This document shows positions 9,741 to 63,232 of a stretch of DNA of 64,000 bases, in pieces. The position numbers and the translations under genes were made by a program. Location: NCBI GenBank assembly GCA_963664405.1, contig OY761158.1:1600001-1664000 (forward strand). Reading direction: 5' to 3'. Below the pieces are notes generated by a model. The model had not been told where the DNA came from, did not search any database, and saw only the letters and a list, made by a program, of their open reading frames with translations. Numbering within the stretch: position 1 is the stretch's first letter; each line of letters begins with the position of its first letter. Source of the DNA: Thermoanaerobaculia bacterium (GTDB taxonomy: Bacteria > Acidobacteriota > Thermoanaerobaculia > Multivoradales > Multivoraceae).

Positions 9741-9906
9741 CTAGACCAGCGTTTCCAAAGTTCGTGCTGCATAGCTCGAGCTCATTCTGTTCGCTGGCTA
9801 GGCGCGCCGACGCAGGCATATTGGGCAATATGTCGAGGAGGCGCAACGCCGGCAGCGGGCAGAAGGGGCCGAGATATGTGCGCGAACTTTGGAAACGCTG
9901 GTCTAG
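9741..9906. mobile_element. Family A palindromic element copy 1 (166 bp, CTAG at both ends)
   Basis: 24-bp terminal inverted repeat CTAGACCAGCGTTTCCAAAGTTCG; right CTAG supplies the stop of 9903..10109. Confidence 0.92.
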
Positions 9907-10109
9907 AGCTCGAAGGGCTCACCCCGAGTCGTTCCGCGAGCTCGAAGCGCCTCGTAGGTACCCTGTCCCGCGGCACGAGACGCAGCGAGCACCTGCTCCA
10001 AGGATTCGCTTTGCTGGCGAAGGTCGCGTAGACGGGCCACGTCGACTTCGTCAGTGGGCACATCGCTGTCGAGGTCGAGGGGCTCAGAGGCTACGGTGAA
10101 TCTCTTCAT
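9903..10109 (-). CDS. Small protein coupled to nucleotidyltransferase gene
   Basis: 68 aa; overlaps the 3' end of the upstream NTase gene. Confidence 0.55.
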   Translation of the reverse strand: MKRFTVASEPLDLDSDVPTDEVDVARLRDLRQQSESLEQVLAASRAAGQGTYEALRARGTTRGEPFEL

Positions 10110-10614
10110 AGTCTTTGTCTAGTCCATGCCGGTGGAAGTATTCTCGCACCTCGTCACGATCCACGCTCTCGATACGAAGCAGCACACGAATGTCGGCGAG
10201 ATCCTGCAACCGCCGCGTCCGGTCGTTCCTATAGGCCGTGACCTTCATCGCTATGAGGTGCTCTGGCTTCGGCACCAAGGCTTTGCAGCCCGGAAAGACC
10301 AGACGTTCGCGGGCGTCGGCAAAGAGCTTGGCTTCGGTCTCGCCGCGAACGTAGATCAAGTCTACGCGGCCCCAGGCCGGGTCCGCGTGGAGGTGGTTCG
10401 AATAACCGGAGGAGCGATGCAGTGTCTCGTAGCCGAGAGACTCGAGATAGGCGACCACGGCATCCTGTTGGTCGAAGGGGACGATCAAGTCGAGATCGAA
10501 GGTCGTACGACCGCCCCCGTAGCTGTTCAATCCCCATCCACCGGCGACCGCACACCGGGAGCTCTGATGGTTGAGAAAGCTAGCGACAGCCTCGTGGACG
10601 CGAGTGTATTCCAT
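10084..10614 (-). CDS. Nucleotidyltransferase (AbiEii/DUF6036-like)
   Basis: VAGG, RTTFDLD, LIAMK, QDLADI. Confidence 0.75.
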   Translation of the reverse strand: MEYTRVHEAVASFLNHQSSRCAVAGGWGLNSYGGGRTTFDLDLIVPFDQQDAVVAYLESLGYETLHRSSGYSNHLHADPAWGRVDLIYVRGETEAKLFADARERLVFPGCKALVPKPEHLIAMKVTAYRNDRTRRLQDLADIRVLLRIESVDRDEVREYFHRHGLDKDYEEIHRSL

Positions 10615-10695
10615 GGCTCGTGCTTGAACAGTTTACCGGCCTCGACGACCGATCGCCCGTGCGCCACGTGCGACACAAACCTCCACCTGCGGCCC

Positions 10696-11436
10696 TCAGG
10701 AGAACGGCCGCAGCCTGTTCTCATTGAAGGAGGTGAACATCTCGTAGTCCTCGCTGCGAAAGAAGATGCGGCCGTTTGGCCCTCCTGGTGGCAGCTCGAC
10801 GATGAAGCGGGTGTGTGGATAGACCGCTTCTGGCGGCTGCATGCCTTCACTGGTGTTCAGCTGGGTGCGCGTCCCCCCGGGGATCAGACCGTGAACCAGC
10901 ACATCGTCCTGCCCGATCTTGCGCAGCTCGCGGGCCAACGACTTGGTCAGCACCGCGACTCCCGCCTTCGAGGAGCTGTATGCCGACAGCGTGCGCCGTC
11001 CCGCTTCGCCTTCTCTGGAGCAGACGTTGATGATACGGCCATGGCGGCGCTCGAGCATGCCGGGAAGCACGGCGTGGGTGCAGCGCGCCACTCCGCTCAG
11101 ATTGACGTCGATGACCGCCTTCCAGTCGGCGAACGGCCGATCAATGAGATCGCCCTGATTGGCGATACCTGCATTGTTGATCAGGACGTCGATCCTTCCA
11201 CCGATCGCCATAGCGGCGTCGGTCAGCCGCTTCACGTCCGCGTCCGAGGTGACGTCGCCGGTGACACAACGTATCCGGCCACCGCAGATCGCAGTGGTCT
11301 CCGCGAGGCCTGGCTCATCCAAGTCGAAACCGACCACGTCAGCGCCATCCGCAACGAAGCCGGTGCAAAGGGCGCGGCCGATACCACTCCCGGCCCCCGT
11401 AATGACGATCACTTTTCCACTCACACCTTCGCTCAT
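10696..11436 (-). CDS. SDR oxidoreductase
   Basis: TGAGSGIG, NNAG, YSSSK. Confidence 0.92.
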   Translation of the reverse strand: MSEGVSGKVIVITGAGSGIGRALCTGFVADGADVVGFDLDEPGLAETTAICGGRIRCVTGDVTSDADVKRLTDAAMAIGGRIDVLINNAGIANQGDLIDRPFADWKAVIDVNLSGVARCTHAVLPGMLERRHGRIINVCSREGEAGRRTLSAYSSSKAGVAVLTKSLARELRKIGQDDVLVHGLIPGGTRTQLNTSEGMQPPEAVYPHTRFIVELPPGGPNGRIFFRSEDYEMFTSFNENRLRPFS

Positions 11437-11475
11437 CGATTCCTCCGATAAGAGATCTGAAGCAGGAGACTCGAT

Positions 11476-12846
11476 CTATGACGTCTCCGAGCGCTCTGGC
11501 CCCTCGATCTCGAGACACTGCCGCTCCATCTCGCGACGGAAGAGTACCGCCTCGTCCGACGGAGAGGACTCGACGTCGTCCCAGCGCACAAGGCCCCCCT
11601 CCTCCACCTCTCGGATCAATCTAAGCCCTCGCGCAAGACCGATCGGGAGACAGCCCCGCTCGAGAGACGTTGTCGCCGGCAGCTGACGACCCCAGACGCT
11701 GAAGCCACCCTCACCGTCGAGGATCTCTCCGACTCTGAGAGCCCGCTTGGCGACTGCCACGACATCGGACCGGAAGGCGTCTGCGCACCCGGTCGGCTCC
11801 TGTCGGCAGGCGATCGAGGCAATTGAGATGCCGAGCTCCAGGCCGATGAAGTGGGCCGGCCGCCAGAGCGCGAAGTGCTCCTGCTCGCGATCAGCGGAAA
11901 AGCCGTACTCACCGAGGCAGCGGCGCACATAGTCGTGGTCGGCAGCGACAACGACATAGGTGCCCAGCGTGAGGTCGTCTTCGATCTTGGCGCCGTCCCG
12001 CCGCAACGAGGAGACCACCTCGGTAGTCCCAGACCGACTGAGCTGACCGCCCTTGGCCCGCGGCCGACACACCTCTGCCAGCTCCCGGCACGCCGCGGGC
12101 GGAAAGCCGAGCCCCTCTGCCTGGGGAACGAGGCCGGTGGCGTTGGCCACCGCAGTCATCTCGATCGCCGACTTCGAGCCATCGATGAAGCTGGTGAACA
12201 TCTGCGGGTTCATGCCACCTCTCGCGGCCACCTCGGCAGTGATCCCGAAAGCCTCCCAGACCGTCTCCGGAGTCGAATGATGAAAGCGCGGCAGGTAGCG
12301 GGTGCCTTTGCCGGCGCAGACGACTTCGAAGCCACAGGTACGGGCCCAGTCGACGTGTTCACAGATCAGGGCCGGCTGATCGCCCCAGGCAAGGCTGTAG
12401 ATCACCCCGGCCTCGGCCGCACGCCGGGCAAGAAGAGGGCCGGCCAAAGCGTCGGCCTCCACATTCACCATCACTACATGACGCCCGGCCGTGAACGCGG
12501 CCAGGGCGTGAGCGATGCCGGCCCGCGGGGAGCCCGTCGCCTCGACGAGAATGTCGAGATCCGGGGCCTCGATCAGAGCCTGGGTATCGTCGGTCAGCCA
12601 GGTGCCACCAGTGCGAAGAGCTGATTCGACGTCGGCAGCGCCGACCCGTTCCGTCGCCCAGCCGGTTGCCTCCAGTGCGAGACGAGCGCGCTCGGGCTCG
12701 AGGTCTGCGATCCCTACAATGTGTACCCCTGCCATCTTTCTGGCCTGAGCCAAAAACATCGCCCCGAACTTGCCGGCTCCAACCAGACCCACTCGTACCG
12801 GTTCACCTTTCGCCTCGCGCTCTCGCAGCGACCGGTACAAGCTCAT
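11476..12846 (-). CDS. Homoserine-dehydrogenase-like NAD(P) oxidoreductase with C-terminal SAF domain
   Basis: VGAGKFG, NVEADA, GDQP, DGSKSAIEM, LDGEGG. Confidence 0.82.
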   Translation of the reverse strand: MSLYRSLREREAKGEPVRVGLVGAGKFGAMFLAQARKMAGVHIVGIADLEPERARLALEATGWATERVGAADVESALRTGGTWLTDDTQALIEAPDLDILVEATGSPRAGIAHALAAFTAGRHVVMVNVEADALAGPLLARRAAEAGVIYSLAWGDQPALICEHVDWARTCGFEVVCAGKGTRYLPRFHHSTPETVWEAFGITAEVAARGGMNPQMFTSFIDGSKSAIEMTAVANATGLVPQAEGLGFPPAACRELAEVCRPRAKGGQLSRSGTTEVVSSLRRDGAKIEDDLTLGTYVVVAADHDYVRRCLGEYGFSADREQEHFALWRPAHFIGLELGISIASIACRQEPTGCADAFRSDVVAVAKRALRVGEILDGEGGFSVWGRQLPATTSLERGCLPIGLARGLRLIREVEEGGLVRWDDVESSPSDEAVLFRREMERQCLEIEGPERSETS

Positions 12847-12968
12847 GCACCGATCATAGCCGGGAGGGATGAAGGGACAAGCCTCGACATCCGCCAGCGT
12901 CAGATATGCTCACCCGACTAGGGCCAATTCATCAGCCTCCCTCTCACCTCTCTTTCAAGGAGTCATCG

Positions 12969-13733
12969 ATGGCGTACGAACGTTCGCTCTCCCTTCTTCC
13001 GGCTGTCGTCCTGCTTGTCGGCGGTGCTCTCGCCGCATCTCCATCTGCGGCCGATGTCTATGAGCTGCGGACATACACGACAAACGAAGGCAAGCTGGAC
13101 GCACTCAATGCCCGTTTCCGTGATCACACGGTGCGGCTGTTCGAGAAGCACGGGATCGAGTCGGTTGGCTACTGGGTTCCGACCGACGAAGAGCGGTCGA
13201 AGAACACCTTGATCTACGTCATCAAGCACAAGAGCCGCGACGCTGCGAAGGCATCTTGGAAGGCGTTTCTCGCCGACCCCGAATGGAAGAAGGCGGCAAA
13301 GGAATCGGGAGTCGGGGCTCTGGCGAACCCGCCGGTGTCGGTCTTCGCGGAGGCTACTGACTTCTCACCAGCATGGAAGAACGAAAAGACAGACGGAGAG
13401 GCCGCTTTCGAGCTGCGGATCTACCGCTGCAACGAAGGAGAGCTGGGCAATCTCGACGCACGGTTTCGAGACCACACCATAGGTATCTTCGATCGTTTCG
13501 GCATGCGCTCAGTCGCCTATTGGCATCCCACCGACGAGCCAGACTCGAAGGACACCCTGATCTACCTTCTGCGCCACGACTCCCGTGAAGCGGGGACTGC
13601 CTCGTGGAAGGCCTTCGGAGCTGACGAGGAATGGAAGAAGGTCGCTGTCGAATCGCAGAAGGACGGCAGGTTTCTTCGCGAGCGCCCAGAGTCGATCTAT
13701 ATGAAGGCAACCGACTACTCGGCGATCCAGTAG
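12969..13733 (+). CDS. Secreted tandem NIPSNAP-domain protein
   Basis: Two (Y/F)ELRxY...RFRDHT repeats; ATG 12969 after AAGGAG; signal peptide. Confidence 0.85.
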   Translation: MAYERSLSLLPAVVLLVGGALAASPSAADVYELRTYTTNEGKLDALNARFRDHTVRLFEKHGIESVGYWVPTDEERSKNTLIYVIKHKSRDAAKASWKAFLADPEWKKAAKESGVGALANPPVSVFAEATDFSPAWKNEKTDGEAAFELRIYRCNEGELGNLDARFRDHTIGIFDRFGMRSVAYWHPTDEPDSKDTLIYLLRHDSREAGTASWKAFGADEEWKKVAVESQKDGRFLRERPESIYMKATDYSAIQ

Positions 13734-13763
13734 ACATGTCGGAGTGGCTCCGACCGGGGCCGA

Positions 13764-14111
13764 CTACAGACCCAGATGGAGGCGAAGGGCGTCTTCCAGG
13801 TCGGACATGAGCGACGGCGGAAGCTGGCCAACTCGTCCGCCCACCCTTTCGATCGCTATCGAGCGTACCTGCTCCGCTTGCGCCTTGGAGTCGCGGGACA
13901 ATCCGCATTCCGCAGCGGGCAGCCTCACCTGGAAGGGATATATCCGGGTCACGTTCGAGGTTACCGGCACCACAGTGATGATGCCGCGACCGAGTCGAGA
14001 GGCCGTGGCGTTGGCGCCATCGTTACTAACGATCACCGCCGGCCGGCTCTTCTTCACCTCGGACCCTCGCGCTGGAGCGAGATCGACAACACGAAGCTCA
14101 CCGCGGAGCAT
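13764..14111 (-). CDS. mazF: PemK/MazF toxin
   Basis: RGSEVKKSRPAVIVSND, VVPVTS, SKAQAEQVRSI; TGATG coupling with antitoxin. Confidence 0.9.
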   Translation of the reverse strand: MLRGELRVVDLAPARGSEVKKSRPAVIVSNDGANATASRLGRGIITVVPVTSNVTRIYPFQVRLPAAECGLSRDSKAQAEQVRSIAIERVGGRVGQLPPSLMSDLEDALRLHLGL

Positions 14112-14344
14112 CACCGCTCCTCGACCTGCGGATCGAGCCCATCGCCACTCACCGCCTCCCACAGACTCGCATCGCCGGCTTCCCACTCTTCCCATGCCTG
14201 CGCGTAGGCGGGACCGAGCTCGGTTGCACGCAACAGGCGAACCGCCTGTTGAAGGACAGCAGACCGAGAACGGGCCCCTACGTTGCGAGCATAGTCGTCG
14301 AGAAACTCGATGTCCTCCTCGGGTAGACTCACACTCAACTTCAT
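14111..14344 (-). CDS. RHH antitoxin (MazE9-like)
   Basis: MKLSVSLPEEDIEFLD...SRSAVLQQAV. Confidence 0.85.
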   Translation of the reverse strand: MKLSVSLPEEDIEFLDDYARNVGARSRSAVLQQAVRLLRATELGPAYAQAWEEWEAGDASLWEAVSGDGLDPQVEER

Positions 14345-14351
14345 ACCTTTA

Positions 14352-14369
14352 TGCTACCACTAGGTAGCA
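14352..14369. promoter_or_regulatory. Palindromic operator of the mazEF module
   Basis: TGCTACC-acta-GGTAGCA just upstream of the antitoxin start. Confidence 0.6.
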
Positions 14370-14460
14370 ACAAGATAGCAACACGCCACGGTCCAGCTGT
14401 TCTTCTGACTCCATGGTGTAGGCTCTGCGGCCTATGACTCGAAAAAGGGGAGAGACCGTG

Positions 14461-16161
14461 ATGGCAATGCTCCGCGTCCGCGCCCTAGACCAGCGTTTCC
14501 AAAGTTCGTGCTGCATAGCTCGAGGTCATTCTGTTCGCTGGCCAGGCGCGCCGACGCAGGCATATTGGGCAATATGTCGAGGAGGCGAAACGCCGCCAGC
14601 GGGCAGAAGGGGCCGAGATATGTGCGCGAACTTTGGAAGCGCTGGTCTAGTACTCGTTCTGGGGTTGATCTCGGCGCTCGGCTGTCAACCTGCGGAACAA
14701 CCCACGGAGACGGGCGCCCCTCCCGCGGCGGCGGTGGCGGCCGCGCCGAATATCATCGTCATCCTCGCCGACGATCTCGGCTATGGCGACATCGGAGCCT
14801 ACGGTTCCCAGATCCCGACCCCCAACATCGACCAGCTGGCGCGGGACGGCGTTCGGCTGACCTCCGGCCATGTTTCGGCAGCGGTATGCAGCCCGACACG
14901 CGCCGGCCTCCACACCGGCCGCTACCAGAATCGCTTCGGTTGGGAGTACAACCCCTTCTACTTCAGCGGCGCCGACAGAGGTCCCGATGCCGACCTCGGT
15001 CTTCCTCTCGACCAGGCCACACTCGCCAACCTCTTTCAGGATGCCGGCTACACCACCGGCCTGATCGGCAAGTGGCATCTCGGTGTGGCTGAGCAGTACC
15101 ACCCGATGAACCGTGGCTTCGACGAGTTTTACGGAATCCTGGGAGGCGGTACCAGCTACATCGACTCCCGCCTTCCCGGCACTCACGAGTGGCCCGAGGA
15201 GGGTGCCCCGACCACCCGCAGCGGAGACTCGCGCGTCATCCGCGACGGCTTCGAGGTGATCGAGGTCGAGGAGTACCTGACCGACGTCTTCGCCGAGAAG
15301 GCGGTCGACTTCATCGATCGCCATGCGGACGAGCGCTTCCTACTGATGCTGACGCCGAATACCCCACACACGCCCCTTCAGGCGACGGACGAGTACATGG
15401 AGCGGGTGCAGCACATCGAGGGAGAGGGCGCACGCCTCTACGCCGCGATGGTGGTCTCACTCGACGATTACGTCGGTGATGTCGTCGCCGCCCTACGCAA
15501 GCACGACCTTGAGCGCGACACGATCGTCGTCTTTCTCTCCGACAACGGCTGCATCAACTACATGAGCGAGCCGATCTGCACCAACGCCCCCCTGGCTGGC
15601 AACAAGCGCTTCCACCTCGAAGGGGGCCATCGCGTTCCTTTCATCGTCAAATGGCCGGCAGGCCTTCCTCAGGGCGAGGTCTACGATGAGCACGCGATCG
15701 CTCTCGACCTCTACGCGACCTTCGCAGCTGCCAGCGGTCTCGAAGCCAGCTCTCCCGACAGCGTGAACCTGCTTCCCCATCTACGTGGTGAGGCCTCCGA
15801 ACCGCCACACGAGTTCCTCTACTGGCGCGCGGCACCCAACATCGCGATCCTGTGGGGGAAGTGGAAGATGTGGAAGGTCAACAACACCGATCTCGAGATC
15901 CCTCCGGGGCCGCCGGGCCAACAAGTACCGCTGCAGGAATGGCCACCCCACTCTTCGCCCCTAGGCCAGGCCACGGTTCTCTATGACCTTTCCACCGACA
16001 TCGGCGAGACCACGAATGTCGCCGACCAGCATCCCGAGATCGTCGAGCGTCTGGAGAGCGAGCTCGAAGCGTGGGAGGAGACGCTCTCCGAGCCACTCTG
16101 GGTCAACCGCCGCTCGACCTTGCATGAACTGCACGGTCAGACTGTGCACCTCTTCTTCTAA
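14461..16161 (+). CDS. Lipoprotein sulfatase with 54-aa in-frame repeat insertion in its signal peptide
   Basis: ADDLG, CSPTRA, GKWHLG; ALGC lipobox; tandem paralog follows. Confidence 0.88.
   Translation: MAMLRVRALDQRFQSSCCIARGHSVRWPGAPTQAYWAICRGGETPPAGRRGRDMCANFGSAGLVLVLGLISALGCQPAEQPTETGAPPAAAVAAAPNIIVILADDLGYGDIGAYGSQIPTPNIDQLARDGVRLTSGHVSAAVCSPTRAGLHTGRYQNRFGWEYNPFYFSGADRGPDADLGLPLDQATLANLFQDAGYTTGLIGKWHLGVAEQYHPMNRGFDEFYGILGGGTSYIDSRLPGTHEWPEEGAPTTRSGDSRVIRDGFEVIEVEEYLTDVFAEKAVDFIDRHADERFLLMLTPNTPHTPLQATDEYMERVQHIEGEGARLYAAMVVSLDDYVGDVVAALRKHDLERDTIVVFLSDNGCINYMSEPICTNAPLAGNKRFHLEGGHRVPFIVKWPAGLPQGEVYDEHAIALDLYATFAAASGLEASSPDSVNLLPHLRGEASEPPHEFLYWRAAPNIAILWGKWKMWKVNNTDLEIPPGPPGQQVPLQEWPPHSSPLGQATVLYDLSTDIGETTNVADQHPEIVERLESELEAWEETLSEPLWVNRRSTLHELHGQTVHLFF
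14485..14650. mobile_element. Family A element copy 2 (in frame in sulfatase)
   Basis: 166 bp, CTAG ends, near-identical to 9741..9906. Confidence 0.92.
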
Positions 16162-16165
16162 GGGG

Positions 16166-17707: not shown

Positions 17708-17908
17708 CTTTCGTATAGTTTTCGAAAATGATCGCTATCATTTCCGAAATCTAGTTGCTGTTTGGCGCCGAGGACGGCGCACTCGTGCGTTGCTTCCTAT
17801 TCGCTCCGGAAAACGGCGCGGGCCGATTCGGGGGTCTTAGGGCCGGACGCCCACGTCCCTCGGAGCGAATAGGAAACAGCGCCTGAAAGCTAACTAGTTG
17901 TTGTCTAG
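17704..17908. repeat. Family B repeat copy
   Basis: AAATGATCGCTATCATTT hairpin plus TTTGGCGCCGAGGACGGCGCACT..CCTATTCGCTCCG, with inverted CGGAGCGAATAGG. Confidence 0.85.
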
Positions 17909-17992
17909 CCTCGGCTGATACGCCTCGTCCAAGGGGCGACAATTTGGGTGTTATAAGCTCGACGCCAACTCTTTTCAGGAGGAGCGGAAACG

Positions 17993-19353: not shown

Positions 19354-19571
19354 GGCTTCCAGGCTTCCGACCAATCGATGTCGAGAAGATCTTCGGGCTC
19401 AGCGAGCAGATAGTCACGAGGCTCGAGCCGGTCGAGCTTGGCACGCCGCTCAAGCGGTACGACTCGTAGGATCTGACCGCGACGCTCCACCTCGAGTGGA
19501 ATGCCGGTCTCGAGAACTTGGTCGAGGAGGCGGTAGATGTCCTGTCGAAGGCTCGATGCTGTGACTGTCAT
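19350..19571 (-). CDS. Phd/YefM-type antitoxin
   Basis: TASSLRQDIYRLLDQV; GTAC-rich palindromes upstream (19612..19648). Confidence 0.8.
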   Translation of the reverse strand: MTVTASSLRQDIYRLLDQVLETGIPLEVERRGQILRVVPLERRAKLDRLEPRDYLLAEPEDLLDIDWSEAWKP

Positions 19572-19726: not shown

Positions 19727-20497
19727 ATGTATCCGAATCCCCTGAAAGAGAAGATCCACGACGGCAAGCTCGTCCTTGGCACGATGCTACCGACCCACGA
19801 CATCCGCATCGCTGCCTTCCTGGCCAACGGCTGCACAGCAGACTTCATCTGGCTCGACCAGGAACACTCGCCCTTCGGCCCGCGCGACATGGAGATGATT
19901 CCGATCATGCTCCGCCAAAAGGGAATCGCCCCCTTGGTGCGGGTGGCGTGGAACGATCCGGGGCTGATCAAGAAGGCCTACGATGCTGGAGCCGTCTCGG
20001 TGATGGTGCCGCAGGTCGGCAACGTCGAGGAAGCCAAGCTCGCGGTCCAGTACGGCAACTATCCCCCGCTGGGCAATCGTGGAATCTCCCCGCACTGGCC
20101 ACTGCTGGCAGGCGAAGACTTTGTCAATGTCGTAAAGACCGCAAACGACGAGACGGTCCTCGTTCTGCAGATGGAGACGGTCGAGGCCTACGAACAGATC
20201 GACGAGATCCTCGCCGTCGACGGCTTCGACGTTCTCTTAGTCGGTCCGATGGATCTTTCAGCATCTCTTGGTGTCACCGCCGAGATGCAGAATCCAAAAG
20301 TGCAGACGATCATGGAGGACGTACCGAAGCGAGCCGAAGGCAGCGGCAAGATCATCGGAACAACACTCCAAGACCCGGAGGAGATCCGCCAGAAGATCGA
20401 CTGGGGCTACAAGTTCCTCAATCTCGGCAGCCCGATCGGTTTCGGCATTCGATTCGTCAACGACCGCTTCGCCGAATATCGCGAGCAAGCGGGCTAG
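19727..20497 (+). CDS. HpcH/HpaI aldolase family
   Basis: DQEHSP, VMVPQV, PPLGNRG, QMET, VGPMDLSAS. Confidence 0.9.
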   Translation: MYPNPLKEKIHDGKLVLGTMLPTHDIRIAAFLANGCTADFIWLDQEHSPFGPRDMEMIPIMLRQKGIAPLVRVAWNDPGLIKKAYDAGAVSVMVPQVGNVEEAKLAVQYGNYPPLGNRGISPHWPLLAGEDFVNVVKTANDETVLVLQMETVEAYEQIDEILAVDGFDVLLVGPMDLSASLGVTAEMQNPKVQTIMEDVPKRAEGSGKIIGTTLQDPEEIRQKIDWGYKFLNLGSPIGFGIRFVNDRFAEYREQAG

Positions 20498-20506
20498 TAA
20501 CGGCCT

Positions 20507-20686
20507 CTAGTGTCCTGTATCAGTAGTTCGTCACACAACTCGCTGGCCCTTTTGGGCGCTGCCGTCGTTGGCTGGGCGCCCCCGCTCTCCTCGCAATATT
20601 GCCCAATATACCTTCGTCGTAGCGCCTTGGCAGCACCCAAAATGACTGCGCGATTTATGCAACGAACCACTGATACAGGACACTAG
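20507..20686. mobile_element. Family C palindromic element (180 bp, CTAG ends), sister of family A
   Basis: TIR CTAGTGTCCTGTATCAGT(A/G)GTTCGT; core aligns to the reverse complement of family A. Confidence 0.85.
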
Positions 20687-24930: not shown

Positions 24931-24936
24931 TGCAAA

Positions 24937-25943: not shown

Positions 25944-26213
25944 GTGAAACCAACGAAAGAACGTCCCCAGAGACGCGAGTACCGAGCGAAGGTCTTCCGT
26001 AACGGGCGCAGCCAGGCGATACGCCTCCCCAAGGAGCTCCGATTCGATGAGCAAGAGAAGGAGGTTCGTGTGTGGCGGGAGCACGGACGCCTGGTAGTCG
26101 AATCGATCGACGAGTGGCCGGAGGACTTCTGGCGACTCTTCGGAAGCGTTCCTGATCTCGAGCTCCCCGAGCGAACGCCCCTCGCCGAGGCACGCGACCG
26201 CTTCAATCGGTGA
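25944..26213 (+). CDS. vapB: AbrB-type VapB antitoxin
   Basis: AKVFRNGRSQAIRLPKE. Confidence 0.9.
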   Translation: MKPTKERPQRREYRAKVFRNGRSQAIRLPKELRFDEQEKEVRVWREHGRLVVESIDEWPEDFWRLFGSVPDLELPERTPLAEARDRFNR

Positions 26214-26602
26214 GGTACCTCCTCGACACCGATACGGTGAGCTTCATCCTGCGCGGAGAGGGGAGGGTCGAAGACCACTTTCTTCGCCTCCGCCCGTCGG
26301 ACATCTGCACCAGTCCGATCGTCGTAGGAGAGATTGAGCTCGGCCTCGAACGGAGAAAGAACCCGAGGCTTCGACTGCTCGCTGAACGTCTCTTCGAGAT
26401 CTTGTCCGTCGCGCCTTACGACAGGGAGGCTGGCCAGCACTACGGCCGATTGGCAGCTTCCCTCCTGGCAACAGGAACCCCGATCGGGGTCGAGGACACG
26501 ATGGTCGCGGCCCACGCCCTGTCGTTGGGCCTGACTCTGGTCACTCACAACACCAGGCACTTTGAGCGAGTACCGGGGCTCAGGGTCGAGGACTGGTACT
26601 AG
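26210..26602 (+). CDS. vapC: VapC toxin
   Basis: YLLDTD, DTMVAAHA, VTHNTRHFERVPGL. Confidence 0.92.
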   Translation: MRYLLDTDTVSFILRGEGRVEDHFLRLRPSDICTSPIVVGEIELGLERRKNPRLRLLAERLFEILSVAPYDREAGQHYGRLAASLLATGTPIGVEDTMVAAHALSLGLTLVTHNTRHFERVPGLRVEDWY

Positions 26603-26763
26603 ACCAGCGTTTCCGAAGTTCGTGTACAGAGCTCGAGGTCATTCTGTTCGCTGGCAAGGCGCGCCGACGCAGGCATAGCAGGGACTATGTCGAGGAGGCG
26701 CAACGCCGCCAGCGGGCAGAAGGGGCCGAGAACTGTGCGCGAACTTCGGAAACGCTGGTCTAG
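26599..26763. mobile_element. Family A element copy 3 (165 bp, on vapC stop codon)
   Basis: CTAG ends; compensatory changes in both TIR arms. Confidence 0.9.
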
Positions 26764-41943: not shown

Positions 41944-43140
41944 ATGACTAGACCAGCGTTTCCAAAGTTCGTGTGCAATAGCTCGAGGTCATTCTGTTCG
42001 CTGGCCAGGCGCGCCGACGCAGGCATATTGGGCAATATGTCGAGGAGGCGAAACGCCGTCAGCGGACAGAAGGGGCCGAGATATGTGCGCGAACTTTGGA
42101 AACGCTCGTCTAGCGCACAATTGAAAATCAACGCCGTGCTCGTCGCACTAGCCGCCTGTTTGACCGCCGGGCTGCTGCACGCTGCAGATCCCATCACCAC
42201 AGACACCCACCGCTTCATCGAAATTAGAAACGGGATTTACCTGGCGCAAACGACGGCGTCGGTGTTCAACAGCAACTCGTTGGTTGTCGTCAACGACCAG
42301 GATGTCGTGGTGGTGGATTCCCATGCCACTCCGGCCAAAGCACGCGATCTCGTCGCTTCGATCAAGGCGATCACCCCGAAGCCCGTGACCGCGCTGATCA
42401 ACTCCCACCATCATTGGGACCACACCAACGGCAATCAGGAGTTCGCCGACATTCCGATCATCGGCCATGAGTTCACCTATATGAAACTGGCGATCGCGCC
42501 GCGTGAAGAGGTCAGCCGTCACCGTGGTCTCAGCCGCCAGAATGGAGAATTGGCTCAGTTGAGGGAACAGATCGCGTCCGTCGAGGACGACGAGGAGAAA
42601 AAACGACTCGAGACCCAAGCGGCGGTGCTCGGCGCGCACCTTGGCGACTTCGACGAGGTCGATCCGACGCCACCCAATGTGACTATCAGCGACCGCATGA
42701 CGCTCTATCGAGAGAAGCGCGAGATCCAGGTAATCTTCACTGGGCGCGCTCATACAGGGGGTGACGTCGTCGTCTACTTTCCCCAGGACAGGCTCGTCTT
42801 CACCGGCGATATGGCGCTAGGAGGGCCGTCATTCATGGGCGACGGGTTCGTCGATGAGTGGCCCCAGACCATGGAGAATCTCAAAGCGCTCGATTTCGAC
42901 ATCTTCGTTCCTGGCCACGGCAAGCCGGTCACCGACTTGAGAAGAATCGATCTCGTTCAGGAGTACTACAGAGACCTTTGGAAGAAGACGGCCGCCAAGC
43001 ATGCCGCAGGGGTGAGCCCGGAGGAGGCTGCCCGCACCATCGACATGACCAATCACACCGAGATCCCCATCCCAGAGCCGGGCGTGAACCTCCTGGCAGT
43101 AGAACGGATGTACACTCGGCTGGAGAGGCTCCAGAAATGA
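41944..43140 (+). CDS. MBL-fold hydrolase (cyclase-like) with 54-aa in-frame repeat insertion after codon 2
   Basis: SHHHWDH, AHTGGD, FTGD, VPGHG. Confidence 0.85.
   Translation: MTRPAFPKFVCNSSRSFCSLARRADAGILGNMSRRRNAVSGQKGPRYVRELWKRSSSAQLKINAVLVALAACLTAGLLHAADPITTDTHRFIEIRNGIYLAQTTASVFNSNSLVVVNDQDVVVVDSHATPAKARDLVASIKAITPKPVTALINSHHHWDHTNGNQEFADIPIIGHEFTYMKLAIAPREEVSRHRGLSRQNGELAQLREQIASVEDDEEKKRLETQAAVLGAHLGDFDEVDPTPPNVTISDRMTLYREKREIQVIFTGRAHTGGDVVVYFPQDRLVFTGDMALGGPSFMGDGFVDEWPQTMENLKALDFDIFVPGHGKPVTDLRRIDLVQEYYRDLWKKTAAKHAAGVSPEEAARTIDMTNHTEIPIPEPGVNLLAVERMYTRLERLQK
41948..42113. mobile_element. Family A element copy 4 (in frame)
   Basis: 166 bp, CTAG ends. Confidence 0.92.
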
Positions 43141-54152: not shown

Positions 54153-54302
54153 AGTTGGCTCCTCGGCAACCTGCTCGGAAGGCGCGATGCTCGGCGGGAA
54201 TGTCTGCTCCTCCTACTCTACATCGTGCGATCGAGCTCCCGCGCGCGCTCGACTCCCTCTCTCGAGGCTCGGAACCGGCTCGGCTGTTAGGCTCGTGCAA
54301 CG

Positions 54303-57140: not shown

Positions 57141-57179
57141 CCCCATGCCGACTCCGATCTTGCGATCGCGATCCGGTCG

Positions 57180-58277: not shown

Positions 58278-59038
58278 TTCTGCAGGCTAGAGTCCAACAG
58301 CGGACGATAGAAGTCAACCATCTTGTCCGCCAGCTCCGGGTCCTGCGCGAACAGCGGGTAGCCGTGGGCATCGCCGTCGTAGAGAAAGAGCTGAGTGCGG
58401 CTCTTGCCCCCGCGGTAGGCGATCGTGCCCGCCGGGCCCGCGGCCCCCGTGTCGCCTTTGGCGGCGATCAAGAGCAGGTCCCGATCGCTCATCCGCAGGA
58501 GATCTCGCACATGCTCGGATCTCAGCCCGCTCGAGAAGAAACCCATGCGCGCCAGCTCCGAATGGGCCTTGCCGAGCCCAACCACCTGCCCTCCGCCGCA
58601 AGAGGCGCCGAGGGCGCCTGCAACGACTCCCTTTCCCTGTTGCGCCAGGTAGGTGTACGCCGCTTCGGCGTCGTAGGGAAAGCCCGCCATAGCCCGCTGC
58701 CGGTCTTCACTCCCCGCAGTGGCAACGTCGAGGCCGTTCCCCTTGCTGTCGCCGAAGCCACGGAAGTCGATTGAAAGCACTTTGAAACCGGCAGCGGCGA
58801 GCTTGCCCCCCAGCTCCTCGTACATCGCCCGGCTGCTGTTGCACTGGTGCAGCAGCAGAATGCCGGGAGCATCGCCGTTTCCCCACAGGGTGCCGGTCAG
58901 CGAGTGACCGTCTGCGGCAGGAAACTTGACCGTCTTCGACTTCGCGGCCAGCAGCCCCGGCACCACGAGAGCCAGGACCATAGCGAGGCTGATCGCTCGA
59001 AGATACCGGTGTTCGAGAGCTCTTGCAGACATCGGCAA
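58274..59038 (-). CDS. Secreted alpha/beta hydrolase (dienelactone hydrolase-like)
   Basis: DFRGFG, GASCGG nucleophile elbow, AHG. Confidence 0.82.
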   Translation of the reverse strand: MPMSARALEHRYLRAISLAMVLALVVPGLLAAKSKTVKFPAADGHSLTGTLWGNGDAPGILLLHQCNSSRAMYEELGGKLAAAGFKVLSIDFRGFGDSKGNGLDVATAGSEDRQRAMAGFPYDAEAAYTYLAQQGKGVVAGALGASCGGGQVVGLGKAHSELARMGFFSSGLRSEHVRDLLRMSDRDLLLIAAKGDTGAAGPAGTIAYRGGKSRTQLFLYDGDAHGYPLFAQDPELADKMVDFYRPLLDSSLQK

Positions 59039-59108
59039 CCCTCCGCCCCACTAGGGGGCTCACCAGCCGAGCCTAGCACCGGGCGCGTCGTCGCCGGCCT
59101 GCTATCTT

Positions 59109-59139
59109 TGCAATTAGGGACTTGTGCGCCATAATTGCA
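59109..59139. promoter_or_regulatory. 31-bp inverted repeat upstream of DUF4143 ATPase
   Basis: TGCAATTA-15 nt-TAATTGCA. Confidence 0.6.
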
Positions 59140-59142
59140 AGG

Positions 59143-60327
59143 ATGATTCCGCGTCGATTGACAGATCTTCTCGTAGAAAGGCTGCGAGACTTCCCAGCCG
59201 TCGGTCTCCTCGGCCCACGGCAGGTCGGTAAGACCACACTCGCTCGACTCTTGACTGTGGAACAGACCGCGAAGAAGACCGCGTATCTCGATCTCGAGAA
59301 TCCGGTCGATCTGGAAAAGCTGGAGGACACTGCAGGCTATCTCGAGTTTCGATCCGATCGACTCGTGATCTTCGATGAGGTACAGCGAATGCCCGGCCTC
59401 TTCGAGAGACTGCGGGGTGTTATCGACGAGCGAACGTTCGATGGCCAACCCGCCGGCCACTTTCTTCTGCTTGGATCAGCCTCGATCGACCTCTTGAGGC
59501 AATCATCGGAGAGTCTCGCGGGGCGGATTGCCTACCTCGAACTGGGGCCGCTCGACATCACCGAGATCGACTCGGACGACGAGGCTGACCTCTGGATCAG
59601 GGGAGGATTCCCCAGAAGTCTGCTGGCTGCATCCGACCGCGCCAGCGCCACCTGGCGGGAAAGCTTCATCACCACCTATCTGGAACGCGACATTCCCCAA
59701 CTCGGACCGCGGATACCCGCCGAGACACTGCGGCGATTCTGGACCATGCTCGCTCACCGCCAGGGAGCGCCACTCAACGCTGCCGAGCTTGCCCGTAGCC
59801 TGGCGGTGGACGGCAAGACCATAGCGCGGTATCTCGACCTCATGGTGGACCTTCTTCTCGTCCGCAAGCTACAACCTCTGCATGCCAACGTGGGCAAGCG
59901 GCTGGTAAGGTCTCCCAAGACCTATCTTCGCGATAGCGGCCTGGTACACACACTCCTCCGCCTGGACACGTTCGAGGAAGTCGTAGGGCATCCGATTGCC
60001 GGCGCGAGCTGGGAGGGACACGTAATAGAGAACCTGCTCCGCGTTGCGCCTTCGCGCACCGAGGCGAGCTTCTACCGCACATCGGCGGGAGCAGAGGTCG
60101 ACCTCGTGCTCGACCTTCCGGGTTCTCGACGCTGGGCGGTCGAGGTGAAGCGCGGCCGGGCACCCAGCGTCTCGCGCGGCTTCCACAACGCCCTCGAGGA
60201 CCTCCAGCCGGATAGAGCCTTCGTCGTCCATTCAGGTGCCGATCGTTACCCCAAAGGCGAGAACATCGAGGCCATTGGCCTAGGCGACATGGCGAAAGAG
60301 ATCGTCGCCACCTTCGAGAGCCGATAG
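59143..60327 (+). CDS. AAA_14 + DUF4143 ATP-binding protein
   Basis: GPRQVGKT, DEVQ, ESLAGR, PKTYLRDSG, EVDL..AVEVK. Confidence 0.9.
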   Translation: MIPRRLTDLLVERLRDFPAVGLLGPRQVGKTTLARLLTVEQTAKKTAYLDLENPVDLEKLEDTAGYLEFRSDRLVIFDEVQRMPGLFERLRGVIDERTFDGQPAGHFLLLGSASIDLLRQSSESLAGRIAYLELGPLDITEIDSDDEADLWIRGGFPRSLLAASDRASATWRESFITTYLERDIPQLGPRIPAETLRRFWTMLAHRQGAPLNAAELARSLAVDGKTIARYLDLMVDLLLVRKLQPLHANVGKRLVRSPKTYLRDSGLVHTLLRLDTFEEVVGHPIAGASWEGHVIENLLRVAPSRTEASFYRTSAGAEVDLVLDLPGSRRWAVEVKRGRAPSVSRGFHNALEDLQPDRAFVVHSGADRYPKGENIEAIGLGDMAKEIVATFESR

Positions 60328-60408
60328 GACTCGCCGAGGACAGCGAAGCGTGCGACCCCGACCGCGCGACTCGGCGCACCATCGACCATCATCTTCGAAT
60401 CTACTCAA

Positions 60409-60439
60409 TGAAAAATGGGAATGACATTCCCGATTTTCA
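60409..60439. promoter_or_regulatory. 31-bp inverted repeat upstream of second DUF4143 ATPase
   Basis: TGAAAAATGGGAATG-a-CATTCCCGATTTTCA followed by TATAGT. Confidence 0.6.
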
Positions 60440-60454
60440 GCTATAGTCTCACCC

Positions 60455-61603
60455 ATGATCCGGCGGACCCTTCACAAGCGGTCTATTGAGGAGCGCCTCC
60501 GACGAAGTCCAGTGGTGGGCCTCCTCGGCGCTCGCCAAGTCGGGAAAACGACGCTCGCACGGGAGATCCTCGGTGGCCGCAAGAAGGTGCATTGGTTCGA
60601 CCTCGAGCTCCCAGCCGACCGGGCTCTCCTCGCGGACGCTCAACTGGCATTGCAGGATCTCAGAGGCCTGGTAGTTCTCGACGAGATTCAGCACCGGCCG
60701 GAGATATTTCCGTTGCTGCGAAGCCTGGTCGATCGCCGGCCTCTGCCCGCTCGCTTCCTACTCCTTGGTAGCGCTTCACCATCGCTTCTCCGACAATCCT
60801 CGGAGAGCCTAGCCGGAAGGATCTCGTACTACACGCTTCCGGGGTTGGCCGTCGAGGAGGTAGGAGTCAGCGAGCTGGACAGACTTTGGCTGCGTGGCGG
60901 CTTCCCTCGCTCCTTTCTCGCAAATAGCCACCTGGCCAGCAACCAATGGCGTCGAGACTTCATCAGAACTTTCGTCGAGAGGGACCTGGCGCAGCTTGGA
61001 ATCGAGATTCGGTCGAGCGTCGCTCATCGATTCTGGGCGATGCTAGCCCACTACCACGCACAGACCTGGAACGGTTCAGAGCTGGCACGGGCTTTCGGAG
61101 TGACCCACAAGACGACTCGACGTTACCTCGATGCCCTGACGGCGGCGCTGGTCATCACTCAGCTCAGGCCCTGGTTCGCCAACATCGGAAAGCGTCAGGT
61201 CAAGGCCCCGAAGGTCTACATAACGGACTCTGGACTCTTACACAGTCTGCTCGACATCAATGACCGGCGAGGGCTCGAGCGGCATCCGAAGGTGGGCGCC
61301 TCCTGGGAGGGATTCCTTCTCAAGGAGACGATTCAAGCTCTGCGAGCCGAGGATGAAGAATGCTACTTCTGGGCTACGCACACCGGAGCAGAGCTCGACC
61401 TCCTCTGGGTGCGGGGCCGGAAACGCTGGGGTTTCGAGTTCAAACGAACTGTTACTCCGCGCCTGACCCGGTCGATGCATGCCGCGATGGAGTCACTCGA
61501 TTTGCAGCGTCTCTTTGTCGTCCATGCCGGCTCGGAAACCTTTCCCATGCACAAGAAGGTCACAGCGATCGCAGCATCGAGGCTACTAGACGACCTGCCA
61601 TAG
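60455..61603 (+). CDS. AAA_14 + DUF4143 ATP-binding protein
   Basis: GARQVGKT, DEIQ, ESLAGR, PKVYITDSG, ELDL..FEFK. Confidence 0.9.
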   Translation: MIRRTLHKRSIEERLRRSPVVGLLGARQVGKTTLAREILGGRKKVHWFDLELPADRALLADAQLALQDLRGLVVLDEIQHRPEIFPLLRSLVDRRPLPARFLLLGSASPSLLRQSSESLAGRISYYTLPGLAVEEVGVSELDRLWLRGGFPRSFLANSHLASNQWRRDFIRTFVERDLAQLGIEIRSSVAHRFWAMLAHYHAQTWNGSELARAFGVTHKTTRRYLDALTAALVITQLRPWFANIGKRQVKAPKVYITDSGLLHSLLDINDRRGLERHPKVGASWEGFLLKETIQALRAEDEECYFWATHTGAELDLLWVRGRKRWGFEFKRTVTPRLTRSMHAAMESLDLQRLFVVHAGSETFPMHKKVTAIAASRLLDDLP

Positions 61604-61644
61604 TTTCGTAGGACAGGCCGTCTTTGTCGATCCGACGGAAGCGC

Positions 61645-62648
61645 TCAATTAACACCGGCCGCGTTCATCTCTAAAGCCCCAGTGGCCGTACCGGGCATCT
61701 CCCCTCTCACTCTCTCGCGGTCGAGCCTGAGGCCTGTCGATCTGGAGAACCAATCCCGGGTAAGGCTCCGAGGGATGTCGTCACCGGTTCGCCGCATCCA
61801 GTCCGCCAGCACCTTCTTCAATTCCTGATGCACGCTTTCGAAGGCTTCATTCCCGATCAGGTTCGCCAGCTGAAGGCTGTCCTTCCGACAATCGAACAGC
61901 TCCTCGGCGGGACGCGGCGCCAAGAATGTGTCCGCCTGGGCGGCTGAAAGGGACCCTGCTTCGCGTCGCTCGACCAGCGCCCGGTGGGAGTCGCTCCTGA
62001 CCGAATCAGCCGGCCCCTGATTGGCGAATTGCGGCCGACCGTTGAGCACATACATGTGCTCCCTGGTTCTCACCATGCGTTCGTAGGCTTCGTGATCATG
62101 CCAGTTGTGCTCGGCCAAGACGTACTGCCTGATCGACTCATCAGGGCTATTCAGGATTAGCCTGAAGCTCGACCCCTGAAAGGTGCGCGGCTTCTCGACG
62201 CCGGCGATGTCGAGGATGGTGGGAGCGATGTCGATCGGAGATCGAAACCACTGCGGAGGATGTCTCCCATGTGCCACTTGCCGGCGTGCCCGGAGTAGTA
62301 GCCGGCCGCCTTCAATTGATTGGCAATGCTCGGGAAGTCGACGGCAGGCTCGGTGTGGAGCTCCGCGGCGCCGGTATTGTGGGGATAGCGTCCGGTCAGG
62401 ATGCTGATCCGGCTCGGGCTGCACGAGCTGGTGGTCAGGAAAGCGTTGGTGAACTTCACCCCTTCCGTGGCGATCCTGTCGATATTCGGCGTTTGAACGA
62501 TCTCGTTGCCGTAGGCGCCGATGTCGTTCCAACCGATGTCATCGGCGATGAAGACGATGAAATTGGGTCGTTCCGGCCTTGCCTGCTCAGCAGATGCAAT
62601 CAGAGTCATGACCAGAAGAAAACGAGAGAATCGCTGACTGCGTCTCAC
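61645..62648 (-). pseudogene. Sulfatase with internal deletion and frameshift near 62238
   Basis: N-half (ADDIG, CSPSR, GKWH) and C-half (IDIAPTILD, EELFD) in different frames; middle (SDN/SDH region) absent. Confidence 0.85.
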
Positions 62649-63232
62649 GGTTGGTCTCCCGCCGTTATCGCTGCCAGAAAGTGCGCCGGCGAGCTGACGG
62701 TGACCTCGGACATCTTGAAGTCCTTCACATTTCTCGTCAGGATGATGTCGGCAGCCACCGCTTTGCCTGCACTCGCGACGACAGCATCCTCGAAGTCACG
62801 GATTCTCGACGACGTGGCGTCCTCGAGCACACTGCGATTGACCGGTGCGACTTCGAGGATCGAGAGCAAGACACTGACATGCTTTCGAGCTTCTCGTCTG
62901 CCAGCCGCCTTCGTACCTAGACCAGCGTTTCCGAAGTTCGAGTCGCCTAGCTCGAGGTCATTCTGTTCGCTGGCAAGGCGCGCCGACGCAGGCATATTGG
63001 GAATCTGTCGAGGAGGCGCAACGCCGCCAGCGGGCAGAAGGGACCGAGATAGGTGTCGCGAACTTTGGAAACGCTGGCCTAGGTAGAAGATCGTGGTGAC
63101 GGAGGTGGCGCAGACGTAGCCCCGCAGCGAGCCCTCTTCCGCCATGGAAAGCACCTGCGAGGACGAGGCTGAGAAAGGCTCGCGATCCAGGAGAACGTCG
63201 AGCAGAACATCGGTATCGAAAAGTACGTTCAC
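62645..63232 (-). CDS. PIN toxin carrying 54-aa in-frame repeat insertion
   Basis: FDTDVLLD, DFEDA, TRNVKDF; 141 aa without the insert. Confidence 0.85.
   Translation of the reverse strand: MNVLFDTDVLLDVLLDREPFSASSSQVLSMAEEGSLRGYVCATSVTTIFYLGQRFQSSRHLSRSLLPAGGVAPPRQIPNMPASARLASEQNDLELGDSNFGNAGLGTKAAGRREARKHVSVLLSILEVAPVNRSVLEDATSSRIRDFEDAVVASAGKAVAADIILTRNVKDFKMSEVTVSSPAHFLAAITAGDQP
62917..63082. mobile_element. Family A element copy 5 (in frame, read from the opposite strand)
   Basis: 166 bp, CTAG ends, internal -1/+1 indels. Confidence 0.9.

Follow-up and report, generated by a model that had tools for sequence, protein, structure and literature searches.

Family A, a small palindromic and probably IS630-like element of a Thermoanaerobaculia bacterium, and the sites where its copies persist

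Family A is a MITE, probably of the known IS630-like type. The most probable reading of the data, to which we assign a probability of roughly 0.75, is that it is a non-autonomous transposon of 160 bp, belonging to the IS630/Tc1-mariner type, whose insertions are sorted by selection into three surviving niches. The element would insert at the TA inside CTAG (YTAR), with any CTAG as a possible site and a net gain of 162 bp, and it would presumably be mobilised in trans by an IS630-family transposase. Selection would then purge most insertions within genes. Intergenic copies would form the first surviving class. The second would consist of copies placed exactly on C-TAG stops, where the duplication would rebuild the stop and the protein would thus be unaltered. 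The third, seen in family A only, would be in-frame copies at places where 54 extra residues are tolerated, and family A would be able to persist there because it adds a whole number of codons and can be read through in three of the four usable frames. Such spots would lie chiefly where the charged start of a signal peptide gives way to the hydrophobic core. Translation would run through the insert, and tolerance may arise because the signal peptide is cleaved after export. Copy numbers, the structure of the ends, the statistics of occupied sites, the intactness of the frames and the placement in signal peptides are directly established.

Copies in the window and in the genome

Five copies of family A are found in the window, that is, the whole stretch of 64,000 nucleotides that was analysed (Table 1). 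The five copies claimed in the preliminary description are real: each extends from CTAG to CTAG over 165-166 bp, and the flanks are unrelated in alignment. The 24-bp TIR proposed there was also recovered, the first 24 bases of copy 1 being the reverse complement of its last 24. Self-complementarity spans the whole element, and the 166-bp unit is too small for a transposase gene. In the family consensus, +phase 0, +phase 1 and -phase 0 are free of stops, as described earlier, and -phase 1 is closed. Each 166-bp copy adds 162 bp (54 codons), a multiple of three.

Three of the copies are in frame within real genes, as had been reported, and each uses a different open frame. The sulfatase ortholog from another genus has a signal peptide without interruption. 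In the PIN_3 toxin gene the domain is interrupted in frame, and the Pfam match falls in two stretches, the first of which covers profile positions 2-57. The neighbouring DUF6364 gene is likely, from its position, to encode the antitoxin partner of the toxin. The other two copies had been placed on TAG stops. This holds for copy 3, while for copy 1 the assignment is provisional, as the stop belongs only to a 68-aa putative ORF with no significant match in a Pfam search. A copy of sister family C is also present, in an intergenic position 10 nt beyond the end of ORF 19727-20497.

Table 1. Elements of the window and the genes associated with them
Feature	Position	Strand	Description
Family A copy 1, 166 bp	9741..9906	+	Intergenic; 8 nt past CoA-transferase TGA stop
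68-aa putative ORF	9903..10109	-	TAG stop comes from right CTAG of copy 1
Sulfatase gene	14461..16161	+	Pfam; MAMLRVRA, 54-codon insert, hydrophobic region, cysteine
Family A copy 2, 166 bp	14485..14650	+	+phase 0, within sulfatase lipoprotein signal peptide
Apical hairpin core in copy 2	14552..14585	+	CGACGCAGGCATA, 8-nt loop, TATGTCGAGGAGG; common to all families
Sister family C copy, 180 bp	20507..20686	-	Core as in family A, arms different
PIN-domain (VapC-like) gene	26210..26602	+	Pfam; TAG stop rebuilt by copy 3
Family A copy 3, 165 bp	26599..26763	+	First CTAG holds TAG stop of PIN gene 26210-26602
Metallo-beta-lactamase-fold gene with signal peptide	41944..43140	+	Pfam; insert directly after Met-Thr
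Family A copy 4, 166 bp	41948..42113	+	+phase 1, after codon 2 of metallo-beta-lactamase-fold gene
PIN_3 toxin gene, 195 aa	62645..63232	-	Pfam; 54 of the residues element-derived
Family A copy 5, 166 bp	62917..63082	+	-phase 0, inside minus-strand PIN_3 toxin gene
DUF6364 gene	63229..63465	-	4-nt overlap with start of PIN_3 gene

Family A is repeated beyond chance in this genome. The whole genome was searched with the 24-mer end of family A, allowing up to 4 mismatches, and the 299 end matches pair into 137 small family A elements. Together with its sisters, family A belongs to a set of 228 elements in at least seven families (A and at least six others), which have one apical core and different arms. 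Among seven families, A and D have a net length of 3n together with open frames, and B, C, E, F and G have neither. Of 34 bounded elements in other genomes, 21 have a TAG in the flank that ends an open frame of 80 codons or more. The core is found across the Acidobacteriota and also in assemblies that carry the label of other phyla. Its distribution among relatives is patchy, and of 401 genomes sampled from the phylum 5 contain the exact core. Viral contigs searched with the core pattern gave no matches.

The element does not correspond to a catalogued family in the sources searched. Rfam gave no matches in the window at the gathering score and none at E <= 0.1 for eight loci of other genomes, and a permissive scan of one copy returned nothing but generic hairpins of plant miRNA precursors, with scores far below the threshold. 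The earlier remark that family A was not recognised as a described family therefore stands, since Rfam is without a match and no description was found in the full-text searches. The supplementary tables of a MITE census, PMC11602168, could list family A.

Occupied sites and the hairpin core

Elements are rare in gene interiors and frequent on stop codons. These site statistics rest on crude custom gene calls, and the signal-peptide rule used below is likewise a crude custom script. The 137 family A copies include 70 that are intergenic, 51 exactly on TAG stops and 11 in coding sequence; five more have a mutated left tetramer and are probably at stop-codon sites, and they were left out of the stop count. 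An apparent placement in phase 2 inside a gene for five family A copies was an artefact of keeping the mutated left tetramer at excision. For all families together, 26 coding sites are occupied and 3939 coding CTAG are free, compared with 111 occupied and 2306 free intergenic sites and 90 occupied and 762 free exact stop sites. The odds ratio for coding versus intergenic occupancy is 0.14 (p = 2e-25), an approximately 7-fold depletion of gene interiors, and for stop versus intergenic occupancy it is 2.45 (p = 4e-9). The 90 of 228 elements on C-TAG stops can be set against 11% among free CTAG sites. There is no avoidance of divergent promoter regions, which contain 25 of the 70 intergenic family A copies, and no orientation bias relative to the gene at an occupied stop (25 opposite, 21 same).

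Simple neutrality is insufficient for the 2.45-fold excess of stops over intergenic sites. Double-strand cut-and-paste explains neither the restriction of G.U arm mismatches to one strand nor the conserved core with differing arms. The arms contain 72 G.U cells and 7 A.C cells, the family consensus arms contain 28 and 2, and in seven of seven families folding of the forward strand is favoured over that of its complement by 4 to 37 kcal/mol. In addition, unpaired bases of the core are invariant from family to family and between phyla. A tentative suggestion, with the odds clearly against it, is that the core of about 35 nt and its flanking internal loops form a functional single-stranded module, as RNA or folded DNA, that rides in many MITE families whose arms are unrelated. 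If so, the module would be a protein-binding or processing site that aids the spread of the element or is used by the host at gene ends, and the TAG-stop excess and the one-strand wobble would be signs of function rather than of neutral parking.

It is unlikely that the elements act mainly as host-serving RNA hairpins, which after stops might stabilise 3' ends, provide processing sites or modulate translation, with the stop excess produced by positive selection. Such a role is compatible with a MITE origin, and it would suit the stop excess, the strand-specific wobble and the invariant unpaired bases of the core, as well as the precedent of RNase III hairpin processing in Correia elements given in PMC2229807. 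Against it stand the even orientation at occupied stops, the patchy distribution of the core among genomes of the phylum and the copies within divergent promoter regions.

The Correia/NEMIS elements of Neisseria are likewise hairpin-forming MITEs. According to PMC2229807, RNase III cleaves their transcripts. The 107-bp form, which has open frames, occurs fused to ORFs, and the 155-bp form, which contains stops, lies between genes. This split into two forms parallels that between families A and D and families B, C, E, F and G. By description, however, the sequences are apparently unrelated, and placement on stop codons goes without mention in the passages of PMC2229807 cited here.

In-frame copies and signal peptides

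The family A copies found within genes are intact and are concentrated in signal peptides. The in-frame pattern of the window extends to the genome: each of the 11 coding copies is 166 bp long and has no stop in the frame used, compared with 50 of 88 among 166-bp copies located on stops or in intergenic DNA. Nine of the 11 split a signal peptide. Within the first 20 codons, signal-peptide-like genes account for 9 of 10 occupied and 99 of 410 free CTAG sites (Fisher p = 3e-5). Eight of the nine signal-peptide insertions have the orientation that gives a basic peptide, in which K+R/D+E of the insert is 7/3 and 13/2; the ratio is 4/5 in the other orientation. The sequences suggest that a signal peptide may still direct export when 54 mostly basic residues are added at its start.

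The compatibility of family A with reading frames looks like filtering and not design, since the sister families are not 3n and carry stops. The preliminary description had offered both, an element shaped or filtered for tolerance in ORFs. Filtering is supported by the intact coding copies and the signal-peptide enrichment, while shaping is not, as only 11 of the 137 copies are coding. An element shaped by selection to be harmless in ORFs, as proposed for Rickettsia palindromic elements (RPE), with its 3n length and stop-free frames as adaptations and peptide addition as part of its lifestyle, appears improbable. Families A and D do both add 162 bp net with three of four usable frames open, mononucleotide shuffling of the A body gives at least three open frames in just 84 of 5000 cases, and no coding copy is damaged. 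However, A and D are related, so that they represent roughly one event, and shuffles that keep the palindrome give at least two open frames in 1170 of 5000. Coding copies are also absent among the 12 of family D, five of the seven families with the core are not 3n and carry stops, and the related elements of other genomes are mostly 167-168 bp.

RPE and family A are similar in outline but differ in where they are found. PMC10969869 describes RPE as palindromic repeats of about 150 bp that lie in frame within unrelated genes and add a peptide, with in-frame insertion as the main mode, accounting for nearly half of the 44 copies in R. conorii. Family A, likened to RPE by description only, has clear ends and a clear target, and its in-frame minority lies nearly all in signal peptides. 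Such a main mode was rejected for the present elements, given the small coding share of family A and a total of 26 of 228 for all families by crude gene calls.

YPAL/RU-2 and ERIC of enterobacteria offer another parallel, as short repeats with an open frame and involvement in signal peptides. In PMC2229807, YPAL/RU-2 is a 168-bp repeat with a 56-residue open frame, and its fusion forms part of the signal peptide of YPO1552. There the repeat supplies hydrophobic signal-peptide sequence, whereas family A has put a mostly basic peptide into pre-existing signal peptides, nine times.

Ends, mobilisation and significance

The ends of the elements suggest a target duplication of TA inside CTAG, as in the IS630/Tc1 type. 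The end tetramers are CTAG..CTAG in 181 of 228 elements. Fourteen have discordant outer bases (CTAG..CTAA in 9, TTAG..CTAG in 3 and TTAG..CTAA in 2), and none of the 228 has the same non-CTAG tetramer at both ends. Because the variants are never concordant, they argue for duplication of TA within YTAR rather than of four bases. Of the three families named in the preliminary description, IS630 is thus favoured by the better fit of a TA duplication, and IS5 and IS701, with a four-base duplication, are not. An IS5-derived MITE was rejected on the same variants: MITEPsy1, for example, has a 4-bp duplication of CTAG/YTAA according to PMC3189936. An HUH-type cut at CTA^G would yield identical ends.

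IS630-family elements with partly similar ends are present in this genome. IS630 itself prefers CTAG, and the IS630-family (DDE_3) elements of this genome and of the relative G028 are likewise bounded by CTAG. Sub-terminal motifs common to the DDE_3 element and the MITE ends cover 15-18 of 28 bases. At its right end, the resident DDE_3 element of 1245 bp agrees with family A at 15-16 and with family F at 18 of 28 bases, and the DDE_3 elements of G028, which begin CTAGTAGACCGCTTCC and CTAGTACC.TGTAAC, resemble the ends of families A and B; none of these ends is identical. The genome has two DDE_3 loci, one of which is truncated at its 5' end, and the second has its HTH part and DDE part in different frames. 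No transposase gene bounded by family A ends was found in the genome.

Several candidates for an autonomous parent were rejected. The 15 unpaired family A ends belong to truncated copies, with two odd ones that have no nearby transposase. A 2706-bp unit with family A ends is found at two different CTAG sites with 97.4% identity and identical internal junctions, so it appears that A-type ends moved a larger unit. These units contain an integrase together with a transposase of the IS91 family, and the insertion lies in the loop of the core. A 3639-bp unit bounded by A ends has two ORFs that read as IS21-like by eye. Both units are cargo or nested insertions and not IS630-type parents. No empty site was recovered in relatives, which were from other genera only, with flanks of 70-79% identity at best. 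The contigs of four metagenome runs are interrupted where elements begin or end, and none of the 15 joints listed skips an element. Contigs of runs X2 and X7 end at element edges, and in a relative about 91% identical (runs X8 and X10) one contig ends 29 nt into copy 1 and others end at 14481, before copy 2.

REPIN/RAYT elements are long imperfect hairpins with hundreds of copies and selection on one strand. The present elements are similar in hairpin shape, copy number and one-strand selection, but they flank no Y1 gene. It is very improbable that they are single-stranded hairpins moved by an HUH tyrosine transposase (REPIN/RAYT- or IS200/IS605-like) with a CTA^G cut and no true duplication: this would agree with a stem selected on one strand, as seen in the folding advantage and the G.U excess, with the 13 Y1_Tnp matches in the genome (paralogs of about 300 aa) and with every end variant seen, which the cut reproduces, but an element lies within 3 kb of only 2 of the 13 Y1 genes and none is flanked on both sides, the ends resemble those of the IS630 family and have the CTAG boundary in common with them, and orientation relative to replication direction is weakly biased (67/44 versus 50/67, odds ratio 2.0). 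A RAYT/REPIN system, with a Y1 gene flanked by its own repeats, was rejected on the same 13 matches.

A non-autonomous IS630-type transposon has parallels in RUP and other IS630-derived MITEs. These are small, with terminal inverted repeats, TA insertion, ends like those of the IS630 family and presumed mobilisation in trans. According to PMC2229807, RUP (repeat unit of pneumococcus) is 107 bp with stops in all six frames. Family A differs from RUP in its wider CTAG target, in its many copies on TAG stops and in being one of several families with different ends and one core.

Family A amounts to a natural experiment, and a clean one, on the places in a genome where a fixed insertion of 162 bp can be tolerated. 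It is hardly ever accepted inside genes, C-TAG stops accept it freely, and signal peptides accept it if it is in frame. The elements also have an effect on annotation, as they lengthen N-termini and create spurious ORFs. Approximately one in ten C-TAG stops of the genome is occupied by an element, and the hairpins at these positions may affect termination or mRNA ends. A core selected on one strand, in several families and in assemblies of several phyla, points to an undescribed structured motif.

Ends, target and relatives of family A

The ends of family A suggest that, frame compatibility aside, the element is an IS630-type family of MITEs (small non-autonomous inverted-repeat transposons). 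A relaxed search for its central motif finds 269 sites in the genome, and those bounded by inverted ends fall into seven families with 228 elements (A 137, B 30, C 22, D 12, E 10, F 8, G 9). The ends are CTAG..CTAG in 181 of the 228, and the variants include CTAG..CTAA (9), TTAG..CTAG (3) and TTAG..CTAA (2). Because left and right variant ends always differ and are never alike, they fit duplication of TA within a YTAR target, the IS630/Tc1 pattern. IS630 elements are known for a preference for CTAG. The preliminary description had compared the element to MITEs of the IS630, IS5 or IS701 families. IS630 is the better fit, and an IS5-type MITE such as MITEPsy1, with its 4-bp duplication (PMC3189936), is at odds with the end variants.

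No transposase bounded by family A's own ends was found in the genome. There are two DDE_3 (IS630-family) loci. The first is a 1245-bp element with CTAG at both bounds; at the right end 18/28 of its bases agree with family F and 15-16/28 with family A, and its HTH and DDE parts are in different frames. The second is truncated at its 5' end. The genome of a relative, G028, has six full CTAG-bounded DDE_3 elements of two kinds, with ends resembling families A and B.

BLASTN across the genome with the five window copies as query gives 265 clusters. Family A was counted by searching for a 24-mer end with at most four mismatches and pairing adjacent plus and minus matches; 299 matches yield 137 small elements, of 164-167 bp (102 copies), 177-180 bp (24), 213 bp (1), 244 bp (5) and 256-257 bp (5). 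In the variants of 213, 244 and 257 bp an internal CTAG holds a nested insert of 47-91 nt, and in the 179-bp variant 13 nt are inserted next to the core, the conserved apical part of the hairpin. In five places, two elements of different families lie end to end on one common CTAG. A further hairpin family of four copies has a core-like centre and other arms, without clear CTAG ends. Family-A ends also bound longer units of 2706 bp (two) and 3639 bp (one). The 2706-bp units are 97.4% identical, with internal junctions alike, and their cargo, in the core loop, is a tyrosine integrase and an IS91-family transposase (Y2_Tnp with Zn_Tnp_IS91). The entire unit appears to have been moved by the MITE ends. 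The 3639-bp unit is probably a nested insertion.

In-frame MITEs are already known, including RPE, ERIC, BOX, QMITE1 and Anabaena MITEs (PMC10969869). Related accounts contrast a 107-bp with a 155-bp form of Correia elements, describe RUP together with IS630-Spn1, and present YPAL as part of a signal peptide (all PMC2229807); there is also a census of prokaryotic MITEs (PMC11602168). Full-text searches of the literature gave no description of family A, which the preliminary description had not recognised as a described family either, and neither parking on TAG stops nor repeated signal-peptide insertion was found described in full text. As far as these searches reach, this is an IS630-type MITE family so far undescribed.

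The hairpin core

All seven families share an apical core, CGACGCAGGCRTA, a loop of 6-9 nt (7-8 nt in the strict pattern) and TAYGTCGAGGAGG; the hairpin arms, unlike the core, differ from family to family. Fifteen elements from the seven families and from other genomes were aligned on their common centre. RNAalifold predicts 62 pairs, 49 of them with changes on both sides, and paired cells amount to 92.4%, compared with 65.4% in shuffles and 33-42% with partners slid. This covariation alone is not proof of an RNA, since an inverted-repeat DNA element yields it by itself. The strand asymmetry of the fold and of the wobble pairs is beyond expectation for such an element. In 7/7 families the fold of the strand that carries the core as written is more stable than that of the complement, by 4-37 kcal/mol. 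G.U pairs outnumber A.C mismatches 28 to 2 in the family consensus arms and 72 to 7 among the (not independent) cells of the 15-sequence alignment. Movement by a HUH/REPIN-like mechanism would account for strand specificity, but none of the 13 Y1_Tnp paralogs of the genome has elements on both of its sides. These Y1_Tnp (HUH) proteins of ~260-315 aa have an HxH motif and are unlinked to MITEs; their loci are similar mostly within the gene itself, and two pairs are almost identical. The conserved core, selected on one strand and common to many families, is the part that the IS630-type MITE reading leaves unexplained.

More than 101 stretches of named assemblies contain the core in its exact form. 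Among the matches listed, the majority are labelled Thermoanaerobaculia or Acidobacteriota, and other labels are Planctomycetota, Deltaproteobacteria, Syntrophobacteraceae, Gemmatimonadota, Holophagae and Sporomusaceae. These labels suggest a host within the Acidobacteriota. The distribution of the core among relatives is patchy: of 401 genomes sampled from the phylum, 5 have the exact core, and a reversed control gives 0 matches. The pattern is absent from viral contigs, and no Rfam family matched the core. The orientation of elements shows a weak relation to replication direction (67 plus and 44 minus to the left of a GC-skew minimum near 2.7 Mb, 50 and 67 to the right; odds ratio 2.0, p = 0.008), and the better-folding strand tends toward the leading-strand template.

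The five copies of the window

The window spans 1,600,001-1,664,000 on one contig of 6.78 Mb. Its five copies align from CTAG to CTAG, as first described, and their flanks are unrelated. The first and last 24 bases are perfect reverse complements of each other, confirming the 24-bp TIR. Four copies are 166 bp long and copy 3 is 165 bp. Three copies (2, 4 and 5) were correctly placed in frame in genes, one per open frame. The other two had been assigned to TAG stops; this holds for copy 3, and copy 1 is only on the stop of a putative 68-aa ORF, for which a family search gave no significant match. The sulfatase translation with copy 2 runs from MAMLRVRA through 54 element residues to a hydrophobic stretch with a terminal cysteine, and an ortholog from another genus carries this signal peptide without an insert. 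Of the five copies, three are in contact with toxin-antitoxin-like gene pairs. Contigs of a ~91-97% identical relative from metagenome runs X8 and X10 stop 29 nt inside copy 1 and just short of copy 2, so copy 1 may be older than copy 2.

Coordinates of window copies, their neighbours and related units
Feature	Location	Description
Copy 1	window, from 9741	8 nt beyond TGA stop; right CTAG terminates 68-aa ORF
Copy 2	window, from 14485	inside sulfatase gene; Pfam domain from residue 105 of long ORF
Copy 3	window, from 26599	start is TAG stop of PIN gene
Copy 4	window, from 41948	directly after Met-Thr of metallo-beta-lactamase-fold protein; signal peptide downstream of insert
Copy 5	window, from 62917	minus strand; PIN_3 domain split, frame kept; DUF6364 gene upstream, overlapping the PIN_3 gene
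Toxin-antitoxin-like neighbour	window 9903-10614	AbiEii-like nucleotidyltransferase
Toxin-antitoxin-like neighbour	window 25944-26602	MazE-like with PIN
Toxin-antitoxin-like neighbour	window 62645-63465	DUF6364 with PIN_3
X8/X10 contigs	window 9000-9769, 11103-14481	
2706-bp units	G000:C1:6758844-6761549, G000:C1:6272417-6275122	family-A ends, different CTAG sites
3639-bp unit	G000:C1:6281697-6285335	family-A ends; two long, putatively IS21-like ORFs
Further hairpin family	G000:C1:914462, 1502099, 3197156, 6120934	

Stops, signal peptides and reading frames

Elements are depleted in coding sequence and enriched at stops. Genes were called with our own script, a simple codon-log-odds caller (5555 genes, 87% coding), and sites were classed by running it on the genome after excision of the elements. 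Coding CTAG sites number 3939 free and 26 occupied by an element, intergenic sites 2306 and 111, and stop sites of the exact form C plus TAG 762 and 90. Over all families, the odds ratio against intergenic sites is 0.14 for coding (p = 2e-25) and 2.45 for stop sites (p = 4e-9). Family A alone has 70 intergenic copies, 51 copies on stops, 8 within the first 20 codons of genes and a few elsewhere. The 'phase 2' flag of five family-A copies is an artefact of a mutated tetramer, and these copies are probably at stop sites. A host-serving RNA role of the hairpins would account for the excess at stops, but the elements show no preferred orientation to the gene (25 opposite, 21 same). In other genomes the flanking TAG ends an open frame of 80 codons or more at 21 of 34 bounded elements, the majority of the 34 being 167-168 bp. 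The genome has fewer CTAG sites (7317) than its base composition predicts (~23,144); TAG is the stop of 1982 of 5552 predicted genes, and C precedes 885 of those 1982.

The 11 family-A copies in coding sequence keep the reading frame, and nine of them split an N-terminal signal peptide between its charged start and hydrophobic core. Several interrupted signal peptides end in a lipoprotein-like cysteine, and eight of the nine insertions have the orientation encoding basic peptides. The remaining two copies are in a PIN_3 toxin and a membrane protein. Signal-peptide-like genes, scored by a crude rule, account for 9 of 10 occupied and 99 of 410 free first-20-codon sites (Fisher p = 3e-5). The tenth occupied site has the look of a signal peptide by eye, and two of the ten hold longer variants that are also on an upstream stop. 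All 11 coding-sequence copies have a length of 166 bp and no stop in any of the three frames; 50 of 88 copies elsewhere are 166 bp (one-sided probability ~0.003). At 0.947, the identity of the 11 to the consensus is near that of other copies (0.913-0.928), suggesting that they are not obviously much younger. The insert would be translated, and its tolerance would rest on the cleavage of signal peptides after export.

The observation of a frame-compatible element is real. The preliminary description had it shaped or filtered for ORFs, and the sister families contradict design for ORF tolerance. Families A and D have a modal span of 166 bp, a net insertion that is a multiple of three (+162) and three of four usable frames open. 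Net length is not a multiple of three, and frames are mostly closed by stops, in families B (168 bp), C, E and F (167 bp) and G (197 bp); such families also occur inside predicted genes (E 3/10, B 3/30). Frame compatibility is best read as filtering that acted on a family with a net length that happens to be a multiple of three.
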